A stretch of 63,796 bases of DNA, the filler included. It is 15 parts of 15 records of this genome, joined end to end, with 100 filler letters (N's around TTAATTAATTAA, not from the genome) between each part and the next. Parts side by side here need not be neighbours in the genome. Positions count along the whole stretch, not along the records: positions 37,878 to 42,834 come from SRR15195285_7615; 14 more parts are not named here. One strand, written 5' to 3'. Positions 3,288 to 54,990 of this stretch are shown here, piece after piece. A model generated the notes under the pieces. That model saw only the letters and a program-made list of their open reading frames with translations. It ran no database searches and had not been told where the DNA came from. The position numbers and the translations under genes were made by a program. Every line of letters begins with the position of its first letter. Position 1 is the first letter of the stretch.

Positions 3288-3387
3288 NNNNNNNNNNNNN
3301 NNNNNNNNNNNNNNNNNNNNNNNNNNNNNNNTTAATTAATTAANNNNNNNNNNNNNNNNNNNNNNNNNNNNNNNNNNNNNNNNNNNN
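3288..3387. other. Artificial contig-joining spacer (first of 14)
   Basis: N44-TTAATTAATTAA-N44, with stops in all six frames. Identical spacers at 8961-9060, 12997-13096, 17136-17235, 20535-20634, 24190-24289, 28018-28117, 32029-32128, 37778-37877, 42835-42934, 47727-47826, 51443-51542, 54891-54990 and 59892-59991. Genes are truncated at these points. Confidence 0.99.
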
Positions 3388-8960: not shown

Positions 8961-9060
8961 NNNNNNNNNNNNNNNNNNNNNNNNNNNNNNNNNNNNNNNN
9001 NNNNTTAATTAATTAANNNNNNNNNNNNNNNNNNNNNNNNNNNNNNNNNNNNNNNNNNNN

Positions 9061-12899: not shown

Positions 12900-13096
12900 C
12901 GTGTCGGCTGCTCAATACATTTCCGTGACGCGGTGGACTACCGTATAATCGCGCGCGCGGATACTGTACTGTGTGTTTCCCATGTTCTGAGACTTCNNNN
13001 NNNNNNNNNNNNNNNNNNNNNNNNNNNNNNNNNNNNNNNNTTAATTAATTAANNNNNNNNNNNNNNNNNNNNNNNNNNNNNNNNNNNNNNNNNNNN

Positions 13097-17050: not shown

Positions 17051-17259
17051 AACGGCTCCCGCCGGTAGCCGTTACCCGCGCCCACTCCTTAGGCCTGGCG
17101 CGATTTTTTAAAAGTTCATTCCGGCGCTTACCGTCNNNNNNNNNNNNNNNNNNNNNNNNNNNNNNNNNNNNNNNNNNNNTTAATTAATTAANNNNNNNNN
17201 NNNNNNNNNNNNNNNNNNNNNNNNNNNNNNNNNNNCGTCACCGTTACGTGTCGTTGCAG

Positions 17260-20534: not shown

Positions 20535-20634
20535 NNNNNNNNNNNNNNNNNNNNNNNNNNNNNNNNNNNNNNNNNNNNTTAATTAATTAANNNNNNNNNN
20601 NNNNNNNNNNNNNNNNNNNNNNNNNNNNNNNNNN

Positions 20635-23655: not shown

Positions 23656-24818
23656 TGCTGCGTCAAAATCAACCCCTGCGCTCTCTCGTAGTACCGCCAC
23701 TGTCTCTCGCCCCGCGCGTAGGCAGCGGGACGGGGAGTCCGCTGCGCTGCCCAGTCAGTTGTATGGGCGAAGAAACGGGACGACCACTTTTCACAGCCAG
23801 TTGTATGGGAGCAGAGGTCTGCTGTATTATCTCTCCCGATCGCTTCCGCGCCGTCGGTGTCAAAATGATAAGGATTTCAGTACTAAATGCAGGGCCGGGC
23901 AGCCGGGCGGGAAGAGAAGACGCGCCCGCACGATTTCTCAGTGAGTTCTCCCTAGCAACCCGTCGCTCACCATATTCTCTACAAACCCGTACTTCTTTCA
24001 GTTTGCATATCAGAATAAGTGCTAATTTCATTGAAGCGTAGACCGTTGATAAATGCGCTTCAATGTGAGCGAGGCTCCCGTGCCTGTGGGTTCTCACGGT
24101 GTCCTCCGGCGCTAGCGTCGGAGCGACTTGAGGGCAGTCATGACTACCTTCTCCGTAAAACATTTTAAATGTATAATCGGGATTCGGAANNNNNNNNNNN
24201 NNNNNNNNNNNNNNNNNNNNNNNNNNNNNNNNNTTAATTAATTAANNNNNNNNNNNNNNNNNNNNNNNNNNNNNNNNNNNNNNNNNNNNGAGTTCTATGT
24301 ACTCCACAAGAATTCAACCCTGGCCAAAAGCACGGTAGAGCGCTGCCAGCCTCCTGCATACACCGTGTTCTCAGAGTGGATCGCACGCACTCACTCTCGC
24401 GTAGTAATACACAGTCGCTCAGCCGGCGGGTTCAGGAGTGCCATACGCTGCTCGCTGGGGAGTGAGCCATTGATGGATCTTTGGGGTCTGTGCGAGTCGT
24501 CCGGCAGATATGGCGGTGATGATCTGCGCGGCATGGGCTAGCTAGCGAGCGCTCTGCGTTCTTCCTTCCGGAGGGGGCGGCTCGGGGCTGTGGAGAGAGG
24601 CTGCTTGTGATACAGCATTCCCGGGGCGGGGGTGTGGCTGGGGCGTGGCTGGGACGTGGCGGTGAGCTGGCGCTGCGGCTTGCCAACCGGAGGTGACGAG
24701 CCAAGTGAAGGAAGAGTGGCGAGCTGAGGCTTGGCAGCAGCAGTCGTACCGTGTACACTCGAGGGCTGATGGCCCGGGGGAACGTGCGGCAGGCTGCGTG
24801 AGCGGCGAGCGGGTCGAT

Positions 24819-37564: not shown

Positions 37565-37882
37565 GTCTCAGCGCTCCAGGGTCTCAGTCGAACCGACGCT
37601 CTCAGGCTAGGCGTGTCGGTCCGACACAGTCGGCGCGTGCGTGCTATCGCGCCACGGCCCGGCGCGGCGACGGTCCGGCGTGCTTCCGCTAGCGGCGTGT
37701 CGGTCCGACGCAGCGGCGTGCGTGCGTCGCGCGCGTGCTATCCGGCACACAGCTATGGTACTCGAACTACGGTACGTNNNNNNNNNNNNNNNNNNNNNNN
37801 NNNNNNNNNNNNNNNNNNNNNTTAATTAATTAANNNNNNNNNNNNNNNNNNNNNNNNNNNNNNNNNNNNNNNNNNNNCTGTA

Positions 37883-40800
37883 ATGATTCCAGAGGACGCC
37901 ACGTATTTTGTCTGGGCTTACCAAGGCGTGGACTTGGACAAGGAGCTGGATGCCACACAGGCCAAGGAGCTGGATGCAATCTCTCCCGAGGTCAACTTTG
38001 TCTCGCTGGGCGGATTTGTGTACCTGAAATATGTTAAGTGGGGCGGTGAGGATGGCAAGACAGTTCTGTCGGCGGACGTGTGCAGGGCAAATGCCATCGG
38101 ACTAGAGGGCAGCACCTTCCGGTCCCGTACCATCAACCGCCCCGTATGCGACAAAGCAGATTGCGACCCAGAGTTTCCACACCGCGTGACTACGGCTGTT
38201 GCGTCGCCAGAGCTGTTTGACGGCCTCAGTATCGGCCTTGAGACGGACATATATGCGTTCGGTGTTGTCATGTGGGAAGTTTTCACGCGGCGGCAGGCAT
38301 GGGAATGGTTTACAGGCCACACGAAGGCCAACCAGATCATGAATGCGGTGATGGTTCTGGACCGCCGCCCACGTATGCCTGGCGGTCTGAACCCTCATTG
38401 TGCTAGCTGGATGCGACGCTGTCTGCACGCGGACCCAGTGCGTCGACCGAATATAAAGCAGATCACAGAATGGGTCACTCGCTGCCGAAAGAGTGTTGAG
38501 GAGGGTATGTGGTCGCAAGCCGAGGCTTCTCTTAGCCAAGCCAGTATTAGAGAGAGAGATATGCATGCCGGGGCGGACGAAGCGAGAGGAATGTTTGCGA
38601 ACTGCGAAATCACGAACAAAACCAACGAGCATTGGAGCGAGCGTGGTCAATTTTCGCTGCATAAATCGAAGTTCTCGAGTCGTTTTGGCCTATCCCTTGA
38701 GGTCATGGAGTGCACGCTGGACCAGTGGATGGAAAACGCCTTGGTCGGTGACGAGGACGAGCCTGCACCGCTCGGCAAGCTCTCTAAGATCAAGATGGGC
38801 GGCTTTGGCCTCAAGTTTGAGAGATTGGACCCTTCTGGTGGCAAAGAAAAGACCTGGCCGGTCGTAACGGGCTGTGCCCTCAAGGACAAAGTGGGCTTGC
38901 CGACGATTGCTGCGGAGTTTCCATCCATCGCGCCCGGCTGTCGCATCACAATGATCAACGGGAAACCCACGCCCCCTACGTTCAAGGCCGCCTTGAAAGA
39001 GCTGAAGAAGCGCCCGCTTGCCCTGGAGTTTACAACAGGAAACAAGGAATCCACTAGTATCGGCAGCCCGTGGCTGCGAGCCGGGCTGCAAGCTGTTGAC
39101 GTAGTTCGCAGGCACGAGATGGGACCTGGGTCTCCAAAACAGCCACGCTTGTTCGCCATCGCGGAACAGTATCTTTCTCGCGCCGCGAGTTTTGATGATA
39201 TGGATCTTTCACAGCCACAGCCAGTCCTGTCCGTCCTGTCCGCAGAGGAAAGGAAGGAGAGATTTGCCGAACAATGCCTTGTTCACGCGGCAAGTGAGGG
39301 CCTCGTTCGCTATGCTCGCGACTTGCTCGAGCACTTTAGCCATCTACTGCAGCGTAGCCTCCGCCCGTGGAGCAACACGGGCATCAGTGCATGTGAGCTT
39401 ACCTCTAGCGGACGTGGGGACTTCGAAACGGTCGTGCGGCGAGAGTGGTCGCCCGCAGAGGCCGATCAGATGTGCCGCACTAACTTCCACAGGCTCGCGT
39501 GCGAAGTTGGTACTGCATCACTGGACAGATCTGTGCGGCAGCTCTTCCAAGTTTTGGGTTGTTTTCTTCGCTATCGGGACGCACATGGGCATGAAACTGG
39601 TTACCGATTAGACGATGAGCCGTCGTATCAGAGTCCCACATGCAAGGTCTTTTGTGCGACACGCGTCAGCGCGTGGGAGTCCACTGTCGACATGCGGGTT
39701 GCTGTGAAGATCATTCAAGGCCCAGACGCATCTAAGCACTTTCATCGTGAGCGGTTATCGCGACTTCAAATGCGCAAGCGAAAGCTTGTGCAGACTATTT
39801 GGCGCTCCTTTGCTGTTGAGGACGGGGTGGATGGAAGCCTCAGTCGCGATCAGCTAGCAACTGTCGTGAACCAGATGGGACGACACGCAGATGATGCGAC
39901 GTTAAGGTGCATTGAGGATGAGATTACTCGTCACTCGACTGCTAGAAAGATCGATATGGTGAGCTTTGAGAAGTGGTTCTTCGCATCTGCAAGCAGCGTC
40001 GAGCAGAGACGAATGTACACGCAGCACAACTGCCTTACAGCGCGACATGATGCAGCAGTTGTAGCCATCGAGATGATCGTTCCAAAATCATACCGACTGG
40101 ACCAATACAGTGACATCATCCCCATCCGCATGCACGATGACTGTGGTGCAACGGATTACGTTGTAGTGATGGAACTGGCCAGTGATAATCTTGCGACATT
40201 TATGCTGAAGAACCAAACTGTGGCCGGGCAGAGCATATCTTGGGTTCAGGGCGACTTCAAGGACATGGCAATTGCGCTGAACGCAGTCCATGAGCTCGGA
40301 GTGGTCCATCGTGACGTCAAGCCTCGCAATATGTGCCGGAGTTCGGGCGAGACCTGGAAGCTGATTGATTACGATGCAGCGATAGGTCAGTCAGACCCCG
40401 CAGGCTTCTCTAAGGCCAGCTCTGCGTATGCCCCGCCTGAGCTTGCGCGGCAGATGTTCTGCTCCTGCCCCGGTACCAGCTGCCAAGGCATTGTGGGCTG
40501 TGCAAACGCAACTCAGGAGGATGTCGGCGCTTGTGCCAAATCAAGCTTCGATGTGTGGTCGCTTGGAGTGGTGTTGTACGAGATTTGCTCTGGGCGCCCT
40601 CTTTTCACAAAAAATTCTGCAAACGACACCCTGGTATCCTTTGAGGACAAGGCATCGCTTTGCGTCTGGAACACGATCAGCGATGCTATGCTCGACCCAG
40701 TCTTCCAATCGGTCTCCGAATCAGAATGCAAGTGGAAGGAAGCAGCAAAGGACCTCATTCGGTGGTGTCTCAAAGGTCGACCAGAAGACCGGCCGACAGT

Positions 40801-42382
40801 GAAGGAGATTCTTGCGCACCCCTTCATCAATCCTGTCAAATGCTTCAGTGGTGACTCCGAGGCGTCAGTGCCAATGCCACGAGACCTCCCTGTTCAACCG
40901 GCAGTTCAGATCTCCTGTCGCGCAATGAAATATCACGCATTCATCAGCCATGCGCAGGCGGATGCAAGTGGCACCGCCAGCACCCTTCATCTGGCGTTCA
41001 AGCGCCTGGGGGTTCAAACGTGGCTTGACGTGCAGCAAAAGGACGTCACGTTAGAGGGAATGAAGCAAGGAATCAGAGACTCCGCGGTCTTCATTCTGAT
41101 ACTGACTGAACACGTCCTCGCGCAATGGTTTTGCCAACAAGAGATCCTGACAGCGATACACGAAGATAAGCCGTTTCAGATCGTCCTTGAGGAAGACAGT
41201 CGCTTCTGTCCATTTGATGAAGCTACATGGCGTGACAATTCAGGAGATCGAGACTCTCACGGCAGAGTCGCGCGCTTTGTGAAGAATGTGGTGGGTATCA
41301 AGAAGGAGGTACCTAAACGCATATCTGACAAGATTGACGAGGTACTGGATTGCGCGGACACACCACCAGTGACATACAGGCGACGTGGGTTTGAAGCCGA
41401 AGCAATGATTACGGAGCTGTGCAGTAAGACGCGGATGGGTGTAAGTCTGCCCGCCAAACCAAATCCAACCCCGAAGCTGGACAAGCCGTTGGTTGTCTAC
41501 GTGATCCACAATGCTGAGGGGCAGGACATGTACAGCGTCCTCGAACACGAGCTTCAGCGTGGTGCCATCGAACTGTGTGTCGATGAAGGTCGAATCGCAG
41601 AGGCAGACCACGTTCTATTGCTGCTTACTGCTAAGATACTTCAACAGCCTTCTCTTGGGCAGCTCAAGGCTGTGTTGAAGCAGGATACGCAGCAGCGTTG
41701 CGACCGTTTAACTGCCATCTACAGTGCAGACACGAGGAAACACGGCTGGGAATTTTACTGCGAAGAACACCGTGCTTGCGCCGACTCACAGGTGAAGCAA
41801 GCCCTTGATGATCACGAGGCTCTCATTTTCAAAAAGCTCGACCTTGAATTTGGCGCTCGCAATAAGCACGAATTTCCAGCAATGCTGAGCCACCTGCTTG
41901 AGCAGATTGTTCGGCGCAGCGAAGCACGCACAGATGCCCTCGCTCGATATGCTCGAGATGGCTCAGCAGAGCTGTTTGCACCAGCAGCAGAAGGCGTGCC
42001 CCCAAGTCTTGGAGTTGGTCTAGACGACACCAGTGCAAATTACGAACAACTCTCTGCGATGAAACAGGGAGCGCTGATCAGGCATGCTCAACGTTTGGGA
42101 ATAGGCATTGACACAATTACACAGGCCATGGATGATGCAGAAGACAGTCTAGACTGCAAGTCTGCGATTATCCAGATCATACGTACGAACGCGGTAGAGA
42201 AAGAATCCGCGGAATTAAGAGAAGCACTCGCTCCGATGAAGCTGGGGGCGCTACTCAAACGTGCTCGAGAGTTAGATATAGATCATGAGACGACAGAACA
42301 AGCGATGGACGACGCAGACGACCCAAAGCCTGCCATCATTGAACTCATCGTCAAGGGTGAGGCATCGTCGCGCCATGCTTAA
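37883..42382 (+). CDS. Kinase (C-lobe)-PDZ-like-kinase (EF-hand insert)-TIR-second alpha/beta domain-two helical repeats; intronless, probably 5'-truncated
   Basis: Kinase 1: SPEL, DIYAFGVVMWE, RRP. PDZ-like: PGCRITMING..RPLALEF. Kinase 2: VAVK, HRDVKPRN, KLIDYD, YAPPE, DVWSLG. TIR: AFISHAQ, WLD, GIRDSAVFILILT, WFCQQE. Confidence 0.88.
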   Translation: MIPEDATYFVWAYQGVDLDKELDATQAKELDAISPEVNFVSLGGFVYLKYVKWGGEDGKTVLSADVCRANAIGLEGSTFRSRTINRPVCDKADCDPEFPHRVTTAVASPELFDGLSIGLETDIYAFGVVMWEVFTRRQAWEWFTGHTKANQIMNAVMVLDRRPRMPGGLNPHCASWMRRCLHADPVRRPNIKQITEWVTRCRKSVEEGMWSQAEASLSQASIRERDMHAGADEARGMFANCEITNKTNEHWSERGQFSLHKSKFSSRFGLSLEVMECTLDQWMENALVGDEDEPAPLGKLSKIKMGGFGLKFERLDPSGGKEKTWPVVTGCALKDKVGLPTIAAEFPSIAPGCRITMINGKPTPPTFKAALKELKKRPLALEFTTGNKESTSIGSPWLRAGLQAVDVVRRHEMGPGSPKQPRLFAIAEQYLSRAASFDDMDLSQPQPVLSVLSAEERKERFAEQCLVHAASEGLVRYARDLLEHFSHLLQRSLRPWSNTGISACELTSSGRGDFETVVRREWSPAEADQMCRTNFHRLACEVGTASLDRSVRQLFQVLGCFLRYRDAHGHETGYRLDDEPSYQSPTCKVFCATRVSAWESTVDMRVAVKIIQGPDASKHFHRERLSRLQMRKRKLVQTIWRSFAVEDGVDGSLSRDQLATVVNQMGRHADDATLRCIEDEITRHSTARKIDMVSFEKWFFASASSVEQRRMYTQHNCLTARHDAAVVAIEMIVPKSYRLDQYSDIIPIRMHDDCGATDYVVVMELASDNLATFMLKNQTVAGQSISWVQGDFKDMAIALNAVHELGVVHRDVKPRNMCRSSGETWKLIDYDAAIGQSDPAGFSKASSAYAPPELARQMFCSCPGTSCQGIVGCANATQEDVGACAKSSFDVWSLGVVLYEICSGRPLFTKNSANDTLVSFEDKASLCVWNTISDAMLDPVFQSVSESECKWKEAAKDLIRWCLKGRPEDRPTVKEILAHPFINPVKCFSGDSEASVPMPRDLPVQPAVQISCRAMKYHAFISHAQADASGTASTLHLAFKRLGVQTWLDVQQKDVTLEGMKQGIRDSAVFILILTEHVLAQWFCQQEILTAIHEDKPFQIVLEEDSRFCPFDEATWRDNSGDRDSHGRVARFVKNVVGIKKEVPKRISDKIDEVLDCADTPPVTYRRRGFEAEAMITELCSKTRMGVSLPAKPNPTPKLDKPLVVYVIHNAEGQDMYSVLEHELQRGAIELCVDEGRIAEADHVLLLLTAKILQQPSLGQLKAVLKQDTQQRCDRLTAIYSADTRKHGWEFYCEEHRACADSQVKQALDDHEALIFKKLDLEFGARNKHEFPAMLSHLLEQIVRRSEARTDALARYARDGSAELFAPAAEGVPPSLGVGLDDTSANYEQLSAMKQGALIRHAQRLGIGIDTITQAMDDAEDSLDCKSAIIQIIRTNAVEKESAELREALAPMKLGALLKRARELDIDHETTEQAMDDADDPKPAIIELIVKGEASSRHA

Positions 42383-42479
42383 TGTAATGGTTCGCCTTTA
42401 CCTCGCTTTCATTCGCCCACCTACCAGTTGCGTTCACAACCATGCATTCAGAGGTATTGTGCCGGGAAACTATCAGAAA

Positions 42480-42701
42480 ATGCGGATGGTGCTCAACGAT
42501 GTGGTCATGCCGTACACGTGGTACAACATACAGGAGACCAGTCGGCATACGCCGACACAGACTCTGCAACATCTTGGAATCTACGTCGATTTGCGGCGAG
42601 GTTTATTCCTCGTTCCTTCGGCGAAAGAACGCAAGATTGTTCAGTTCGCCAGGCGGTTTTCGTCATGTGTCGGCCGCGGCCGTTACACTCTTCGATGGTA
42701 G
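42480..42701 (+). mobile_element. Degenerate reverse-transcriptase fragment of a DIRS/tyrosine-recombinase retrotransposon
   Basis: PTQTLQHLGIYVDLRRGLFLVPSAKERKIVQFAR matches the DIRS-type RT C-terminal pattern P.Q...LG...D......P..K..KI. No YxDD nearby. Confidence 0.6.
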
Positions 42702-43279
42702 GCCCCACCCTGTGAAGGGGAGACGTGGTATGTGCCTCGCATGCTCTTAAGATGTTGAGTAGGGGCTAATGTTTGGCTTTATGCTCTTGCTTTTGTCACG
42801 GTTCTAGAGAAGGAGGCTGATATGCTGCTCATGCNNNNNNNNNNNNNNNNNNNNNNNNNNNNNNNNNNNNNNNNNNNNTTAATTAATTAANNNNNNNNNN
42901 NNNNNNNNNNNNNNNNNNNNNNNNNNNNNNNNNNATCCAACCTGGGCATATCGAGTTTGGTACCAATAGGCTCGCGCTGTCCTGAAATTTGTACCTCTCG
43001 AGGCCGTCCTGATTCAGGACCCAAAAACTCGCACTTACTGTAATGATAACTCATACAAATATACATACAAGTGTATACAAACATACGCGCAGTCTCGCAG
43101 CTGGAATTCTGAGATATTAACAGGGCTGCGCGCCCGCGCTCGCGCAAACATGCGCATGCACGCACACTGCATGCGGGAATCCCGCGGGCGCGGCGCGAGC
43201 TGGGACGCGATCGACGACGTGGACGTGGCCGGGACTATCGGTACTTGTAGGGACTCGCCGCCTGTACGTGCACCTGCGA

Positions 43280-46200
43280 ATGACCTCGAAGGCCGCGGTC
43301 GAATGTCGGCTGCAGGGTCTTCTAATGCTGCTACTCGTGGATGCGTCCAATGGGCTGCCAAGGATGGATACTATGGAGCCGCCCCACAACACGACGAGCG
43401 CTGTCGTCGGTCGCCGGGTGTTGGCGGAGGCAAGCACGGACGTCTGCGACCTGACCCATATCTCGCTCGCGTGCGCTAATCCGGGTGATCTGCTGTCAGG
43501 TGACGTGTGCTCTTCTCCGTGCGCCAAAGCCATTGTCGCAGGGTATACTCCATGCACGCAGTCGGTGGCAGCCTGGACTTTGCTCCAGACACTGAGCAGC
43601 ATTGTGCAGGGCTGTGATCCATGCTCCTCCAACCCGTGTGTGAAGGGGACCTGTGTCACGCATTCGGCCGGTCAGACGGCCACGTTTTCATGCAGCTGTG
43701 CTGGTGGCTTCCAAGGACACCTGTGCGATCAGCTCGTCGATGTGTGCGCCTCTCAGCCGTGCCGAAACTCAGCGAGATGCGTACCACTCCCAACGCTGGG
43801 AGGAGCGGCACGCTACCAGTGCACCTGCATCGCTGGGTATACCGGCGCAGACTGCGAGGCGAGCATCTGTGCGTCGCGTCCCTGTGGAAACGGAGGCGTA
43901 TGCATGTCGATGAACGACGGCTACTCATGCAGATGCGCCTCTGGGTGGAGTGGCGCTGACTGCATGTCACCCTCCGACCCATGTGAATCGCAGGACTGTG
44001 GACATGGGCGATGCATAGGGGACATAGCTGGTATCACACCCACGTTCAGATGCTCGTGCCAAACTGGCTTTCAAGGCCCCGCCTGTGATCGAGCAGTTTG
44101 TACTGCCAACCATTGCCAGAACCAGGGAACATGTGTGCCTTCGAGCGCCGGTGCAGCTTGCTCATGCCGTGTTGGGTATGTCGGCACGACGTGTGCCGAC
44201 GCGGTGTGCGCTGGCAGTATGAACCCGTGCGGAGAGCACGGGACGTGCAATGTCATAGTCGATGAAAACATGCACTCGTTGGCGTCGTGCAGATGCTCGC
44301 CCGGCTTCGCTGGCGAACACTGCACAAATTCGGTCTGCGATAGTAGTCCGTGCATGAATGCTGGACAATGCCACTCCAGCCACCCCGCTTCTGCATACTC
44401 GTGTACGTGCTTGGGTGGCTTTGCTGGCAGCAACTGTGAGGTGACAGACCGTGTGTGCGACTCGACACCATGTCAGCATGCAGGCGAATGCTCTGAAGAT
44501 CGCGGCCTACTCGGTAGCTTTACTTGCAACTGCCCTGGTGGCTACAGTGGGTCATCCTGCGAAACTGACGAATGTGTTGAGAGCCCTTGTCGCAATGGTG
44601 GCACGTGCGGACACGGAGCTGCAGGCTCACAGGGAGAAGGTCTGTCCTGTCAATGTGTTCCAGGCTGGGTGGGCGACACATGCGAGTCCGATCTCGACGA
44701 ATGCTCGAGTTTTCCGTGCCTCAATGGAGGCAGTTGTACAGACTCGTCCACCGATCCATCTGTTGCAGTCGGTGCTTTCTCGTGCTCATGCCCATCATCA
44801 CACAGTGGCGACACGTGCAGCTCGCTCGTCAATTTCTGCAATGTGGCAAACCAAGACGGCGCTGGTGAAGAGATTTGTCAGAATGGAGGCCAGTGCATCA
44901 ACACTGACATTACGTACAAATGCGTATGTCCAAATGGCTTTATGGGAGACGCCTGCGAAACCAACGTCTGCGACAGCCAGCCGTGTACCCATGGAGGTAC
45001 TTGCACGGGAATGAAATTTTTCCAAGATACGACCTTTCAGTGCGATTGTGCCCCAGGATTCCACGGTCCAACTTGCGAAACAGATGTTTGTTCCAGCCGT
45101 CCATGTGGCGCGCACGGCAATTGCGCTGGTGACCTGTCAGGGTCCCACGAATCCAGCTACGTGTGTCACTGCACGACAGGATTTTCTGGTTTGCACTGCC
45201 ATGTGCAACACGACCCATGTACTAGCACGCCCTGCGAAAATGGTGCAACCTGTACATTTGATCATCAATCGCCCGATGATGGGTATGAGTGCAGCTGCCA
45301 TTCTGGATTCTCTGGGTCGAATTGTGGTGTCGACGTGTGTTCAAGCCAGCCATGCGAAAACGATGGTGAGTGTGTATCCGCCGCAGATGCCCACGCATCG
45401 TATCATTGCATGTGCGAGACTGGATTCACAGGCTCCATTTGTTCGATCGGCGTTTGCGATCCGAGTCCCTGTCAACATGGTGGAACGTGCAGCGCTGTGG
45501 CAGTCGAACATGATGGACCTGCAGACCATTCGCACACTTACAGCTGTGACTGCACGGCAGGTTTCACTGGTTCTGACTGCGAGGTAGATGTGTGTGCCTC
45601 AAACCCATGTTCTGAGCACGGCACTTGCCATAGAAGTGCCTCGGGATACACTTGCGCGTGCAGTACGGGCTGGGAGGGGGTACGATGCTCCAGCACCGTG
45701 GACGAGTGCGTGTCTAAGCCTTGTAGGAATGCTGGAACGTGCGTAGGAGGTGTCGGAAGCTACTCGTGCAGCTGCCTGGCAGGATTCATGGGCGCGCAAT
45801 GTGAGGTTGACATCTGCAACAGCAACCCATGTCAGAATGCTGCTGAGTGTGTACCATACGCGGATCCGGGTGTTACTTTGTTTGGTGGGCCTGTTGGACC
45901 TGCAACAGAGACATATCAGTGCACCTGCCAGGCAGGCTTCAGTGGTGAGCACTGCGAGAAGTCCCTCTGCGCGCACAACCCATGCAATCACGGTGGGACG
46001 TGCGTGCCAAACAGTGGGTCGGTGGTCTCTACGGATGGTGGCTATACGTGTCGGTGTGCCAGCGGTTTCAGCGGCGATAATTGCGAGGGCGTTTGCGACA
46101 CCTCTACCTGTAATGGTGGCATCTGTCACGTTTCAGGAGACGACTTCGTATGTACGTGCCCCAAGGGATTCACTGGGACGAGATGCGAGGTCAGCCTCGA

Positions 46201-47380
46201 CCCATGCATTTCAAATCCATGTGGCGCGAACGGCCACTGTACCAATTCTGACGCAGGCAACGACTTCAGCTGCAGGTGCTTAGATGGATGGAGGGGCACG
46301 CTGTGTCAGACAGACATTTGCACAACCGACAAACTTTGCGTTAGAGGATCATGTACTGCCAGAGGCTCTTTGGAGTGCACCTGTGAGGATGGGTGGAGTG
46401 GTGATCGATGCGAGACCAACGCATGTGATAGCCTGCCCTGTCTGAATTTTGGGACATGCGAAGCTCAGAACACGCGTGGCTCTAGCCTTCCGTACAAATG
46501 CAACTGTGCAAATGGGTACTCTGGCAGTAACTGCGAACACGATCCGTGTTTCTCTTCGCCATGCCAAAATGGAGCTACGTGCAGTGCACTTTTCGGGCAC
46601 TTCTCCTGCACTTGCTCCACTGGCTATCTGGGGGCACTCTGCGAGACAAATCTAGACCCGTGCGCCTCATCTCCATGCCAAAATGCGGCCACGTGTGTAG
46701 AGCAGACTTCTGGTCGGCTAGAATACGACTGTACGTGCAGTGATGGCTTCGCTGGCATACGTTGCGAGAGAGACATCTGCGTTTCGGACAATCCCTGTGG
46801 AGATCATGGCACGTGCAACGCCGGTGGTTCGACCGGTGTAACCTGCACGTGCGACAAAGGCTTTGCCGGAGAGCACTGCTCAATCGATGTGTGTGCATCT
46901 CATCCGTGTCTACATGGTGGCTTGTGCTCGGCTTTGGACAGCGGCAGTTTCACTTGTGCGTGTCAGTCTGGCTTTGGCGGGGATACTTGTGACGATGACG
47001 TGTGCGCTGCCACGAACGATGCATGTGGTGTGCATGGCACTTGTCAGCCAGCCACACTAGGATCATTTCACTGTGTGTGTGCCCCGGGATGGCAGGGTCC
47101 GAAGTGCGCCACAGACATTAATGAGTGCGAGCAAACGCCAGCGGTCTGCCTGAACGACGGGATATGTCACAACACTGACGGCAGCTTCACCTGCGAGTGC
47201 GCTCATCAGTACTTCGGCACAACCTGCAATTTGGACTACTGCAAGTACGGCGATTCTGCGTACTGTCAGAATGGCGGAGTATTGCCGGGGTGCACGGATC
47301 CACACTTACCCCAAGCATGGGCGTGTGCTTGTCCAGACGGTATCACCGGCTCTCAGTGCGAGAAGCCAGTGAGAATGTAG
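43280..47380 (+). CDS. Secreted protein with about 30 tandem EGF-like repeats (Notch-ectodomain/fibropellin-like), intronless
   Basis: Hydrophobic N-terminus. Repeats C.S.PC.NGG.C....Y.C.C..GF.G..C, some with a Ca-binding signature (DLDEC, DINEC). No TM helix. Confidence 0.92.
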   Translation: MTSKAAVECRLQGLLMLLLVDASNGLPRMDTMEPPHNTTSAVVGRRVLAEASTDVCDLTHISLACANPGDLLSGDVCSSPCAKAIVAGYTPCTQSVAAWTLLQTLSSIVQGCDPCSSNPCVKGTCVTHSAGQTATFSCSCAGGFQGHLCDQLVDVCASQPCRNSARCVPLPTLGGAARYQCTCIAGYTGADCEASICASRPCGNGGVCMSMNDGYSCRCASGWSGADCMSPSDPCESQDCGHGRCIGDIAGITPTFRCSCQTGFQGPACDRAVCTANHCQNQGTCVPSSAGAACSCRVGYVGTTCADAVCAGSMNPCGEHGTCNVIVDENMHSLASCRCSPGFAGEHCTNSVCDSSPCMNAGQCHSSHPASAYSCTCLGGFAGSNCEVTDRVCDSTPCQHAGECSEDRGLLGSFTCNCPGGYSGSSCETDECVESPCRNGGTCGHGAAGSQGEGLSCQCVPGWVGDTCESDLDECSSFPCLNGGSCTDSSTDPSVAVGAFSCSCPSSHSGDTCSSLVNFCNVANQDGAGEEICQNGGQCINTDITYKCVCPNGFMGDACETNVCDSQPCTHGGTCTGMKFFQDTTFQCDCAPGFHGPTCETDVCSSRPCGAHGNCAGDLSGSHESSYVCHCTTGFSGLHCHVQHDPCTSTPCENGATCTFDHQSPDDGYECSCHSGFSGSNCGVDVCSSQPCENDGECVSAADAHASYHCMCETGFTGSICSIGVCDPSPCQHGGTCSAVAVEHDGPADHSHTYSCDCTAGFTGSDCEVDVCASNPCSEHGTCHRSASGYTCACSTGWEGVRCSSTVDECVSKPCRNAGTCVGGVGSYSCSCLAGFMGAQCEVDICNSNPCQNAAECVPYADPGVTLFGGPVGPATETYQCTCQAGFSGEHCEKSLCAHNPCNHGGTCVPNSGSVVSTDGGYTCRCASGFSGDNCEGVCDTSTCNGGICHVSGDDFVCTCPKGFTGTRCEVSLDPCISNPCGANGHCTNSDAGNDFSCRCLDGWRGTLCQTDICTTDKLCVRGSCTARGSLECTCEDGWSGDRCETNACDSLPCLNFGTCEAQNTRGSSLPYKCNCANGYSGSNCEHDPCFSSPCQNGATCSALFGHFSCTCSTGYLGALCETNLDPCASSPCQNAATCVEQTSGRLEYDCTCSDGFAGIRCERDICVSDNPCGDHGTCNAGGSTGVTCTCDKGFAGEHCSIDVCASHPCLHGGLCSALDSGSFTCACQSGFGGDTCDDDVCAATNDACGVHGTCQPATLGSFHCVCAPGWQGPKCATDINECEQTPAVCLNDGICHNTDGSFTCECAHQYFGTTCNLDYCKYGDSAYCQNGGVLPGCTDPHLPQAWACACPDGITGSQCEKPVRM

Positions 47381-47726: not shown

Positions 47727-47903
47727 NNNNNNNNNNNNNNNNNNNNNNNNNNNNNNNNNNNNNNNNNNNNTTAATTAATTAANNNNNNNNNNNNNNNNNN
47801 NNNNNNNNNNNNNNNNNNNNNNNNNNAACGCTAACTTGAGCGCGACCACGAGCAACTAAAACTGAGAGAGTATCGCGCCAGACCGCTGAATCGCGTGGAG
47901 TCC

Positions 47904-51442: not shown

Positions 51443-51542
51443 NNNNNNNNNNNNNNNNNNNNNNNNNNNNNNNNNNNNNNNNNNNNTTAATTAATTAANN
51501 NNNNNNNNNNNNNNNNNNNNNNNNNNNNNNNNNNNNNNNNNN

Positions 51543-54500
51543 AGGTGGACAAGAGCTTCCAGGCGTGCCGGAAGGTGCATGGGACTTAAGACGAAGATCA
51601 CTTGAGGTAGCACGCGAGAGCATCCTTGCCCTTGAGGGGAGCTCGACGGGCGGCGGCGACAGTCGAAATCGCGCAGTGTCTGTGTCGCGCTGGCAGAAGG
51701 TCGTGGATCGATCAGGCGAGGATGCGGCCGGCGGTTCACAGTACTGGGTGAACCGTGTGACGGAAGAAGTGCGCAGCGAGAGGCCGACACTTGAAGAGGA
51801 GGCTGCGGACGTGAATCGGCGCGCTCAGGAAGTCAAGCGGCTGCGCTTGACCACCTCGGGTTTGGTGACGGTGGCGAACGGAGACTCCCTACCGGAAGAT
51901 GATCAGATGAGTCCTGCCGTGCAAATGGAAGAACCACAGCAGACGGGATTCGAATCAAGTTCGCCTAGGGCCTCTCGAGGCGGTGCGATGGACGGCCTAG
52001 GACTGTTAGCGGGTGTCGTAATGGCGAAGAAGCGAGCTGCTAAGAAGCGCAATATCGTTGCCTCGAAGTTCAAGGTCAAAAATGGGCGGATGGGGCGCAC
52101 CAGCTCAATCGAAGAGGACCTGTCTACCAAACATGAGGCAGACAACAGCTTGCGATCTTCTTCGGATCTTGCTGGGTTGTTCGCTGGCAGCGGTGACGTT
52201 TGCATGGAAATGGAGCGTGGGATATACGGCCAACTAGTGTTTGACACAGGACGGCACGTTGTCGATACAAGCGCCCAGTCTCTTCCAGAGGCCAGGCAGG
52301 CCAAATTTCTAAAACTTGAAACAGGGGAATGTGAGCGGTTTCTGCAGCTTGATGCCGCGGCGCAACGCGCACGGGTACAAATATTGCGAGGGCTTGCGGA
52401 TTACATGCGTTACTCCTGGGAACTGAAGCCGCCTTCTGTCATCCTGTCCGTCACCGGGAGTGCTACGCCGTTCACGTTGCGACCTTCGTACCAGCAGGCC
52501 TTCAGCCGATCACTGCTGCATGCGACGCGCCACACGAACGCGTGGGTGTTCACTGGTGGCACAAACTCTGGGATAATGAAGCTCGTAGCAGACGGCTTGG
52601 CCAGTCAGAAGCGGGCAGAGACCGTCATTGGGGTGACGACCTGGGGAGCAATTCACGGCCGAACTGAACTCGAGGCGGAAGACTCTCTTCCTCGCACGGT
52701 TCTAGAGCAGTTTACGGTGGCACTTCACGGGTTGGAATCGCTGGCTGATGACCGGATATGGGAGGACAGCATTCGAGAAGTTTGTTCAGAATTTGGGACA
52801 GTGGTTGCAGTCACGGTTGGCAAGTCACTGGTAGTGGGTACTAGCAAATGTGGCATCAAGTGTTATGTCACGTTTCGATCCAAAGAAGCTGTTGAACGGG
52901 CTTGTGCAAAGGGAGCATTTAGAGACCATGCTCACCGGACACACTTTGGTGCGGCACGTGTGTATGCAGCTGCACTCGAAAAGTACGAGGCCTACGAGGT
53001 CTCTGAGGGCGATAGTTTACGTGGGGAGCACACACGGAAGGTGCTTCGGTGTCGTGGCGATGTCGCTATGCCGTATATCTACCACGGACGGCGGCAGGCC
53101 GGAGAAGGCCTCGTCGGTGCCCCACTCGATCGCAACCACAGCCACTACCTGCTGGTGGATGATGGAACGGACGATGAATTTGGACGTGAGCTTGCCATAC
53201 GTGATGAGCTGATCAAGTTTTTCTCTTTTCGAGACGACTTGCGCACTTGCTCGGATACTGCCCTGACGAGTATCATCCGGGAACGTCCGTCTGACGCGAA
53301 GCGGTCTGTTCCTGTTGTCTGTCTGGTCTACGGAGGAGGCGTGAATTCGTTGCAGACAGTCCAGGAACATCTTCAAGCGCACGATCCTATTCTGGTTGTG
53401 CAAGGCACCGGACGGGCTGCAGACCTACTGTTCGATTGGAAGTTGCTTTATGCAGAATGCCGGCGAGTCAAAAAGCAAGGCAAAGCACCATGGGTACAGA
53501 ACGAACGGATGCGAACTAAGGCGCGCGCGTGGCTGCTCAATAATACCGATCTGTGCCTAGACGAAAATTTGCCTCAAGATAGCAAGCTACTAGAGCTGGA
53601 GATAGGAGAGCTCTGCAAGCAACTAGACAAAATTGTGGAGTACCCACGCCTCCATTTTGTCAATGTTTCGCCTGGGGACGACTTCTCAGAGCGTGCAGCA
53701 ATTCTAAATGAGGCGCACGCCTCCATATTGCCGACTATGCTTGAGGCAATAACAGCATCATCAACCATTTTGCAGAAGGTAAAGCTGCCGCTGGCGATTC
53801 GATACAATGACTCGAAGATGATCAGGCAGATCCTTCTCGATGAAGGGTTTTGCACGAAAGAGGGTTGCCAAGAGTTGTCAGCTGACGCCCGCCCATTGCT
53901 GTTCGCAGCTTTCACTGACCAGCCAGACGTAGTTCGTCTGCTGCTTGACGCTGGATTTGATGAGCAAGCCATCGATCATTTGATCTTGCTGGAGTTGCAC
54001 CAAGTCGCGGAGCTTCGTCAACTGGATAGTCTTGGGGGGAGTACTGCATGGGAATCGCAACCGCTTCCATGTCCTCCACAATGGGAGGAGCAGCGCCGCC
54101 ACGAGATTTCTCTTTCAGCTTCGAGCATGGACAGAGACAAATTCAAACATATGACTTTGGACCAAAAGTATGTTGAGCAGTTGGCACAGGTGCAAAGTGA
54201 GTGGGAGCAGATGGCTCGCGACGAGCAGATGCAAATTGCCCGAACTACTACTGCCAAGGTGACATGGGACAAGCTGCAGTTAGTTCCTGGGTGGTCCTTT
54301 GAAGTCGTTGCCAAATCCTGCAGATCGATGGTGCAATCAAGTGCCGACAATACGCCTACTGAAAGCTTGGAGGTTGGTACACGATATCAGCTAGCTTCCT
54401 CGAAATGTTGCTGTGATAGCAAAGATGTGGAGCTGAATCTAGTGTCGGTTGAGGAACCATTTGAATCATACACCGGCTGTGTTGTTGAACCAGAAGAGGC

Positions 54501-54890
54501 CAAACGAACGATGATGACTGATCATGGAGATAGCAGCACCCGTACCAGCAAATTGCTTCGGGAAGTCATTTGGGAAAAGTACCTCTGGGTCATTGTCGAG
54601 GATCCTTCAGTCGGGCGTGTACTGCTGAGACAGGTCAGTGTAGATGAGGTCTCAGGGGCTCTTACTATCAATTCACCAGGGCGCTGGGTGGTTCCACTAG
54701 GTCCAGACATGGTGTCGCTGTACGAATCCGCATGCTCGGCATTTGATCCTTGGTTCATTGTAAAAGAACTGAAGCCTGGTGTTGTATGGTGGCGGCACCT
54801 GGCAACAAGCCGTGATAAGTGTATGTTTGAGGCCCTCCGGGGTGGACTATCGCCGATGTTGCGCGTATTCTGGGCAACTATGACGGGGAG
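51543..54890 (+). CDS. TRPM-like channel N-terminal region: WW-like domain, SLOG (LSDAT) domain with inserted RRM, ankyrin-like repeat; truncated at both ends
   Basis: P.VILSVTGSA, AWVFTGGTNSGIMKLV, IGVTTWG, LDRNHSHYLLVDDGT, VPVVCLVYGGG, PILVVQGTGRAAD. The terminal P.LRVFWA resembles TRPM MHR4. Confidence 0.85.
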
Positions 54891-54990
54891 NNNNNNNNNN
54901 NNNNNNNNNNNNNNNNNNNNNNNNNNNNNNNNNNTTAATTAATTAANNNNNNNNNNNNNNNNNNNNNNNNNNNNNNNNNNNNNNNNNNNN

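Follow-up and report, generated by a model that had tools for sequence, protein, structure and literature searches.

A kinase-TIR gene cut at a contig edge, from an uncultured marine protist: a candidate NAD+-cleaving signalling protein

What might a protein do that carries two protein kinases and a TIR domain on a single polypeptide? The question is raised by an open reading frame (ORF) in a stretch of DNA of 63,796 bases, referred to below as the window. The window consists of 15 unlinked contigs of 3.3-5.7 kb each, joined by 14 identical 100-nt linkers, which have the layout 44 N + TTAATTAATTAA + 44 N and are artificial, not genomic. The contig that carries the ORF covers positions 37878-42834. 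We conclude that the ORF represents the 3' three-quarters of a gene from an uncultured marine protist, and that this gene encodes a large, soluble signalling protein. The reading that we favour, with a probability of about 55%, is that of a cytosolic sensor-kinase-TIR enzyme that would cleave nicotinamide adenine dinucleotide (NAD+). Residues are numbered along the 1499-amino-acid translation (P0001), counted from position 37883, and the coordinates of all features are collected in Table 1.

The TIR domain is central to this reading. It was matched by the Pfam family TIR_2 (PF13676, STIR clan) over residues 1020-1104, with 46.7 bits against a cut-off of 28. An AlphaFold2 (AF2) model of the C-terminal 500 residues, built from a 21-sequence alignment, reached a mean predicted local distance difference test (pLDDT) score of 85.5 and a predicted template modelling (pTM) score of 0.68. 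The best structural match to the TIR part of the model (model residues 15-189) was the TIR domain of SARM1 (9hq0_A), with a Z score of 16.1 and a root-mean-square deviation of 1.9 over 130 residues. Further matches were TIR-1 of C. elegans (8p2m_A, Z 15.5), IL-18Rbeta (Z 14.5), RPP1 (Z 12.2) and ThsB (Z 11.4), with SpbK also among those listed, and Foldseek listed TIR matches as well. The TIR fold, which had been proposed from the letters of the sequence alone, is thus real.

The glutamate of the WFCQQE motif, said in that sequence-only reading to be retained, is residue E1087. We retrieved 189 related proteins with 194 domain rows, of which 178 have a residue at this column. The residue is glutamate in 176 of these 178 rows (glutamine once, alanine once) and in all 21 proteins of the alignment used for the model. 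An aromatic residue stands four positions ahead of it in 175 of 177 rows. This degree of conservation is as expected of a catalytic residue, and E1087 is accordingly a candidate for that role, and a candidate only. By our reading of the alignment to the TIR domain of Brucella TcpB, the spacing between the strand-C "EH" and the glutamate is ungapped and the same in both proteins. A second near-invariant element, YRRR..E, was observed at the end of the TIR domain (positions 41375-41395, residues 1165-1171), where 157-158 of 161 rows keep R1166-R1168 and 158 of 159 keep E1171.

Both of the kinases proposed earlier were recovered. Kinase 2, the core kinase of the family, matched the Pfam family Pkinase (PF00069) with 117.7 bits. 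It contains the strand-3 lysine K609, the catalytic loop HRDVKPRN at residues 809-816 (with D811 and N816), DYD in place of DFG at residues 829-831 (with D829) and APPE at residues 850-853; all catalytic residues are therefore present. The strand-3 lysine is kept in 20 of 20 relatives, and the catalytic loop is nearly invariant in the family (H in 84, D in 83, K in 82 and N in 86 of 86 rows), as is the first aspartate of the D-x-D motif (96 of 97 rows). Judged by its residues, kinase 2 appears atypical but catalytically complete. Kinase 1 is of the TKL type. Its C-lobe matched Pfam PK_Tyr_Ser-Thr with 73 bits (residues 106-196, profile positions 170-256 of 258), and a PDB search gave TAK1 as the closest solved kinase, with an expectation value (E) of 1e-10. 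These matches confirm the TKL-like C-lobe of the sequence-only reading, and only a C-lobe is seen because the contig edge cuts the gene. Since both kinases look real, control by phosphorylation is plausible.

A Cys-rich insert with 6 cysteines in about 30 residues was observed after the APE motif of kinase 2 (positions 40454-40543, residues 858-887). Inserts rich in cysteine are also present at the equivalent place in the relatives P0002 and P0003. The insert could be metal-binding or form a disulfide loop.

Downstream of the TIR domain, the model displays a second flavodoxin-like domain (model residues 202-357). Its top structural matches were residues 2-146 of Cat1 (9mud_K, Z 12.3) and the Arabidopsis TIR domain AtTIR (Z 11.7). 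Other matches were a chain of the IL-17RA/RB/ACT1 complex, which we read as a SEFIR domain (Z 10.9), and the TRIF TIR domain (Z 9.7-9.8), and receiver domains and small GTPases matched at Z 9-10. Cat1 consists of a TIR domain at its N-terminus and a CARF domain at its C-terminus, according to an extract of its description (PMC12162218). As the matched part of Cat1 is a TIR domain, the two best matches are both TIRs and score about 2 Z units above the other flavodoxin-like folds. The claim of a second, TIR-like alpha/beta unit therefore holds, with moderate support from the model.

No Pfam family matched the second domain at E<=10, and glutamate is not conserved at the position of the TIR catalytic residue (45 of 135 rows; lysine in this protein). 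The domain has a motif of its own, W..F ... HEA..(Y/F)R, represented here by W1289, F1291, H1311, E1312 and K1317 (positions 41747-41835). In the family, the tryptophan is kept in 133 of 136 rows, the phenylalanine in 134 of 138, E1312 in 133 of 135 and the final arginine, a lysine in this protein, in 129 of 131.

The TIR domain and the second domain form a single module of about 310 residues in most relatives. A HMMER scan with residues 1010-1330 against 1.84 billion representatives, clustered at 50% identity, returned 938 clusters at E<=1e-3, 305 at E<=1e-10 and 70 at E<=1e-30, and many of the matches span query positions 5-313, so that the two domains behave as one unit. In every one of the 83 proteins whose sequence extends 350 residues or more ahead of the module, the family kinase lies directly upstream of the TIR domain, at a distance of at most 150 residues. 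A Pfam scan covered 44 long members, taken from the 150 best matches, at least 729 residues in length and not scanned earlier (P0155, P0156, P0160, P0166, P0175 and P0177 were left out). TIR_2 was found in all 44 and Pkinase in 43, together with Ank_2 in 9, LRR_6 in 9, SAM in 2 and WD40 in 1. A PA domain was matched in member P0043, and CH with IQ, and a C-terminal ubiquitin, in other members. The core of kinase, TIR and TIR-like domain is thus obligate and invariant in the family, and the N-terminus is swappable, consisting of Ank, LRR, WD40, PA or CH domains or, as here, of a TKL kinase and a PDZ-like segment. Named members come from Picozoa (COSAG01-06), Paulinella micropora and P. chromatophora (a transcriptome ORF); the others are unnamed proteins from marine and other metagenomes.

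The same features could be read in another way, which we regard as possible but distinctly less probable than NAD+ cleavage. The TIR domain would then lack enzymatic activity and mediate homotypic assembly, as TIRs do in TLR, MyD88 and TRIF, and the output would be phosphorylation by the fused kinases, so that one protein combines a TIR adaptor with an IRAK/TAK1 relay. The catalytic residues kept in both kinases fit such a relay, as does TAK1 being the closest to kinase 1, and a second TIR-like domain that lacks the glutamate fits TIR-TIR interaction. Scaffold TIRs also match the model well (IL-18Rbeta as given above, MyD88 with Z 12.8 and TIRAP with Z 11.7). A streamlined kinase and TIR pathway of this kind has been proposed, in a part of Richter et al. 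2018 (PMC6040629). However, a glutamate in 176 of 178 rows, together with the aromatic residue ahead of it, is not readily explained if the domain is a pure scaffold, and the top structural matches are the enzymatic TIRs of SARM1 and TIR-1. Animal adaptor TIRs are not known to conserve a glutamate at the catalytic position, which also counts against assembly as the only function.

Several points weigh against an NAD+-cleaving enzyme. The sequence similarity of the TIR domain to solved NADase TIRs is weak (E 0.0071 for TcpB and 0.072 for AbTIR). The fold alignments give ranges only, and E1087 is placed relative to the catalytic glutamates of SARM1 and plant TIRs at the level of these ranges; the glutamate presumably lies one residue further from the conserved tryptophan than in those proteins. 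Conserved TIRs can also serve purely as assembly scaffolds. In kinase 2 the Gly-rich loop does not follow GxGxxG, with no glycine before VAVK and a family consensus of only "GP..H.S.T..V"; this loop is degenerate, so that binding of adenosine triphosphate cannot be taken for granted. The contig lacks the 5' part of the gene. Because the contigs are unlinked, neighbourhood readings across the linkers are invalid and the window offers no gene context.

From the N-terminus to the C-terminus, with the missing part read from the relative P0002, the protein is made up of a TKL-type kinase whose activation segment contains a large insert, the probable PDZ-like domain, the helical linker, kinase 2, the TIR domain, the TIR-like domain and the two helical repeats. 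In the enzyme reading, the N-terminal module would receive a cue, which could be the binding of a peptide or partner, or phosphorylation. The protein would be turned on or off by the core kinase, or this kinase would itself be switched by assembly. The TIR domains would assemble and cleave NAD+ through E1087, and the outcome would be NAD+ depletion or the formation of ADP-ribose-type signal molecules. Assembly or regulation would be the task of the second TIR-like domain and of the repeats at the C-terminus. The architecture, the folds of the two C-terminal alpha/beta domains, the conserved catalytic residues and the membership of the family are shown, whereas the enzymatic activity, the direction in which control would run and a putative part in defence or cell death are inferred.

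The sequence-only reading had also placed an EF-hand-like pair in the N-lobe of kinase 2 and had proposed that the protein is gated by Ca2+. A ~90-residue insert is indeed present, between helix C and strand 4, and extends the lysine-to-histidine spacing to 199 residues, as compared to 109-121 in 15 of 20 relatives. Searched against the PDB with phmmer, it gave 97 matches at E<=10, and 58 of the 60 listed are calmodulin or troponin C; the best EF-hand match, troponin C, is weak (E 0.037). The hydrophobic pattern of the insert tracks an EF-hand pair in the alignment to troponin C (2jnf). An EF-hand origin of the insert is therefore plausible from these similarities. However, the Pfam EF-hand families did not match it at E<=10, and its scores in a protein-language-model atlas (0.77-0.80) are at chance level. 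We compared the whole protein with the 12-residue loop pattern of PROSITE type, which has acidic ligands at positions 1, 3, 5 and 12. No canonical Ca2+ loop was found anywhere, and the best window had 4 of 6 features. The would-be ligand positions of the insert read E, G, D ... Q in loop 1 and R, S, A ... S in loop 2.

Gating by Ca2+ through this pair, in an NADase or a second-messenger synthase, is in our judgement quite improbable. The calmodulin and troponin C matches, the hydrophobic pattern and the retention of the insert in ~96%-identical metagenome variants speak for it. On the other side, in addition to the unmatched loop pattern, the missing Pfam match and the chance-level atlas scores, the insert is absent from P0002, the closest full-length relative, was seen in none of the 20 aligned relatives, 15 of which have the normal spacing, and differs from the inserts of the 6 relatives with which it was compared. 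The insert thus appears to be lineage-specific and, being absent or dissimilar in relatives, cannot belong to the core mechanism of the family. The EF-hand resemblance stands in a weak form, and the gating by Ca2+ is not supported.

How much of the gene is missing can be seen from its relatives. The frame without stops extends from 37880 as far as the TAA at 42380-42382, a length of 1500 codons. The ATG at 37883, from which the sequence-only reading had started a single intronless ORF, is an internal methionine that is not shown to be a start; the stop-free frame is real, but the gene is 5'-cut and the frame is open to the contig edge. Protein P0002 (EukProt, Picozoa sp. COSAG04, 2360 residues) is collinear with the whole ORF, starting at its residue 491; the identity amounts to 48% for residues 1-414 and to 40% for residues 395-1318. 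Protein P0186 is collinear from its residue 505, with 62% identity. The ORF begins inside an insert that separates DFG from (A)SPE in kinase 1; a CDFG motif lies about 300 residues ahead of ASPE in both P0002 and P0186, and the portion missing here, with N-lobe, HRD and DFG, is present in P0186 and in P0002, where it is included in ~490 extra residues. No piece matching the missing N-terminus was found on the other 14 contigs of the window, which also contain no second TIR module; the window holds a single copy.

Metagenome sequences extend the frame upstream. A seawater-metagenome contig of 3424 nt aligns to 37878-40104 from its base 1219, and thus has 1218 nt of additional upstream sequence. 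In two other metagenome runs, the 30 nt preceding 37880 are in frame; their hand translation ends in ..AARRA, followed by VMIP, and this junction agrees with P0186 at the equivalent place. No transmembrane-like segment was found in the protein, the missing N-terminus being judged from P0002; the top 19-residue hydropathy was 1.28, within the TIR core.

We also considered whether the ORF is a working gene at all. A pseudogene, a chimera of amplification or assembly, or contaminant DNA would be conceivable in a highly fragmented assembly with a 5'-cut contig, and one metagenome contig of low depth (depth 2) has a 2-nt deletion at 39192. These explanations are nevertheless very improbable, as 1500 codons are free of stops, the ORF is collinear with P0002 throughout and the catalytic motifs are all intact. 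Positions 37878-42471 are covered piecewise, at 90-99% identity, by independent metagenome contigs that stem from several studies, and the other indels listed within the ORF (3 nt at 37938, 9 nt at 39227, and -1/+1 at 39050/39063) are in-frame or compensating. The junction of kinase 2 and TIR is spanned by seawater-metagenome contigs, one of them 2853 nt long and aligned to 39001-41862 with 113 differences, which makes an assembly chimera at this junction unlikely. The sequence is contained in 19 sequencing runs, all of marine or seawater metagenome DNA (shares 0.14-0.30).

Between the two kinases, the evidence for the PDZ-like domain of the sequence-only reading was mixed. The segment gave no Pfam match at E<=10 and no phmmer match in the PDB. 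However, a profile of 7 homologous segments gave 7 PDB matches at E<=10, of which 4 are PDZ domains; the best were the PDZ domain of Monosiga GIPC (E 0.016, three times) and that of syntrophin (E 0.19). The protein-language-model atlas, taken as a lead only, pointed to PDZ clusters with 0.92; all of its 10 best family-bearing matches belong to the PDZ clan. An AF2 model of residues 236-725 from a 6-sequence alignment had a pLDDT of 44.2 and a pTM of 0.27, too low for a fold search. The segment, which is kept in 7 proteins, is thus probably a divergent, weakly supported PDZ-like domain. The linker that follows it is conserved and mostly helical, with helices appearing in the low-confidence model, and had no Pfam match at E<=10.

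The TKL kinase and PDZ-like front end occurs in three TIR proteins, namely the ORF under study, P0002 and P0007. It is also found in four stand-alone proteins of about 1030-1090 residues, P0186-P0189, and we take this type as the donor of the N-terminal half of the gene (37883-39037). As both modules also exist apart, the gene is a fusion of the two. The kinases of P0186-P0189 were observed to have a ~290-residue insert between DFG and APE with a duplicated "..GGFVY.." element.

At the C-terminus, the two helical repeats of the sequence-only reading were borne out by a local score of 96, as compared to 23.7 +/- 4.7 (maximum 40) in 500 shuffles, and the repeats have a pLDDT of 83-94 in the model. 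Their pattern, L..MK.GAL..RA..L.I....T.QAMDDA.D...K.AII.LI, is common to P0002. No Pfam family was matched at E<=10 except for MerR-DNA-bind, below threshold (E 0.0028, 18.7 bits against a cut-off of 25.4). The repeat resembles what we take to be a motif common at the C-termini of marine protist proteins.

The sequence-only reading had left room for the architecture being a common and already described family. We found no description of the family in the literature searched, although it is common in sequence data, and the general combination of kinase and TIR was reported in 2018. The closest published analogues are the "Kinase TIRs" of choanoflagellates, alongside the "Kinase TLRs". Kinase and TIR proteins are unique to choanoflagellates within the data set of Richter et al. 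2018 (eLife, PMC6040629), and the part of that article concerned describes the "Kinase TIRs" as having no transmembrane segment and proposes that they shortcut the recruitment of kinases by adaptors. The protein under study is similar in that kinase and TIR are joined on one polypeptide with no transmembrane segment. Unlike the "Kinase TIRs", the present family occurs in Picozoa, Paulinella and marine metagenomes, and it is set apart, by description and not by a comparison of sequences, by a third fixed domain, an HGD/HRD..K.RN and D-x-D signature and variable sensor N-termini. Apparently, what is new here is the fixed three-domain core and the wide, unstudied distribution among protists, the fusion of kinase and TIR being already known.

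With SARM1 and C. elegans TIR-1, an NAD+ hydrolase/ADP-ribosyl cyclase, the protein shares a conserved glutamate that is preceded by an aromatic residue, where the helix after strand C begins. The identity to these TIRs is only 17-20%, and SARM1 is absent from the phmmer matches at E<=1. Neither ARM nor SAM was matched in this protein, which does not have the ARM-SAM-SAM-TIR architecture of SARM1, and regulation would come from fused kinases rather than from an ARM domain that senses nicotinamide mononucleotide and NAD. By sequence, the closest TIRs are those of Brucella TcpB/BtpA, Acinetobacter AbTIR, Paracoccus PdTIR and plant RPP1/RPPT, at marginal values (E 0.0071-0.48). The opening "FISHA..D" motif and the pattern of strand B and BB-loop are common with the enzymatic TIRs of bacteria and plants. 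TcpB, AbTIR, PdTIR and RPP1/RPPT are TIR-only, coiled-coil-TIR or TIR-NB-LRR proteins, never fused to a kinase.

A 2026 atlas of TIR domains (bioRxiv/PMC13142454) comprises 7,432 TIRs from EukProt v3 and, in its main text, leaves the eukaryote-only clades 3 and 9-13 uncharacterised. EukProt v3 also holds the Picozoa and Paulinella members of the present family. The words "kinase" and "Picozoa" are absent from the main text of the atlas (PMC13142454), a check that does not extend to its supplementary tables, which might list the family.

Table 1. Features of the kinase-TIR ORF and its contig, and the linkers of the window (res, residues of P0001)
Feature	Positions	Strand	Basis or remark
5'-truncated ORF, 1500 codons + TAA, open to the first bases of the contig	37880..42382	+	
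Last ~105 residues of the large insert separating DFG from (A)SPE in kinase 1	37883..38197	+	~290 residues in relatives P0002 and P0186
TKL-type kinase 1 C-lobe, res 106-200, ASPE to domain end	38198..38482	+	Pfam and PDB matches
PDZ-like domain (probable), res 245-385 (GFGLKF ... ING)	38615..39037	+	7-sequence profile against PDB, language-model lead
Conserved, mostly helical linker, res 395-560, opening with PWLRAGL..VRRHE	39065..39562	+	Conserved with P0002 and P0186-P0189
Kinase 2, core kinase of the family, res 570-985	39590..40837	+	Pfam Pkinase, motifs
EF-hand-like insert of ~90 residues, helix C to strand 4 of kinase 2, res 632-722	39776..40048	+	
TIR domain, res 1014-1188	40922..41446	+	Pfam TIR_2, model, structural matches
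Codon of E1087, candidate catalytic glutamate (WFCQQE)	41141..41143	+	
Second flavodoxin-like, TIR-like domain and closing helix, res 1201-1356	41483..41950	+	
Two helical repeats of ~45 residues, res 1387-1433 and 1446-1489	42041..42349	+	Also in P0002
3' flank to contig end	42383..42834	+	
Artificial contig linker 5' of the ORF contig	37778..37877	none	ORF contig begins at 37878
Linkers	3288-3387, 8961-9060, 12997-13096, 17136-17235, 20535-20634, 24190-24289, 28018-28117		
Linkers, continued	32029-32128, 37778-37877, 42835-42934, 47727-47826, 51443-51542, 54891-54990, 59892-59991		

Three other contigs of the window were of interest in their own right. On a separate contig, positions 51544-54888 (+) contain an ORF of 1115 residues, open at both ends, with matches to LSDAT_euk (E 1.8e-45) and LSDAT_prok (E 6.8e-16), that is, a SLOG/LSDAT domain of TRPM type. 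SLOG/LSDAT domains bind ADP-ribose-type ligands, and we speculate that this protein might be a receiver for TIR products in the same organism. The contig at 28118-32028 (3911 nt) has a perfect 30-nt terminal inverted repeat and the lowest guanine-cytosine content of the 15 contigs (0.526); a small mobile element is conceivable, as is an artefact of assembly or amplification. The contig next to that of the ORF contains an open frame of 1419 residues at 43121-47377 (+), mostly of EGF-like repeats (EGF, E 2e-126; teneurin-type EGF), which is typical of a eukaryotic surface protein. Simple repeats, namely (GA)n, (CT)n, (GCC)n and (CAG)n, were observed at the ends of several contigs.

TIR domains are the currency that bacteria, plants and animals share in immune signalling, and very little is known about their use in other eukaryotes. 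If the TIR domain described here is enzymatic, abundant marine protists would possess a signalling module in which a kinase controls the cleavage of NAD+. If it is a scaffold, the family would represent a pathway of fused adaptor and kinase with an origin outside the animal lineage. In both cases, the outcome bears on the evolution of TIR signalling. The N-terminus of the family changes in the manner of the sensor part of an immune receptor. A broader view, which we put forward as speculation and consider unlikely, is that the family is an unrecognised class of innate-immune or stress receptors of protists, without a STAND/NB-ARC ATPase, in which variable sensors (Ank, LRR, WD40, PA or PDZ-like) would act on an obligate kinase and this in turn on a TIR enzyme, with ADP-ribose-type products as second messengers and SLOG/TRPM-type proteins as possible receivers. 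Were this view true, the family would be a third independent wiring of TIR enzymes in eukaryotes, beside the TIR-NB-LRR proteins (TNLs) of plants and SARM1 of animals.

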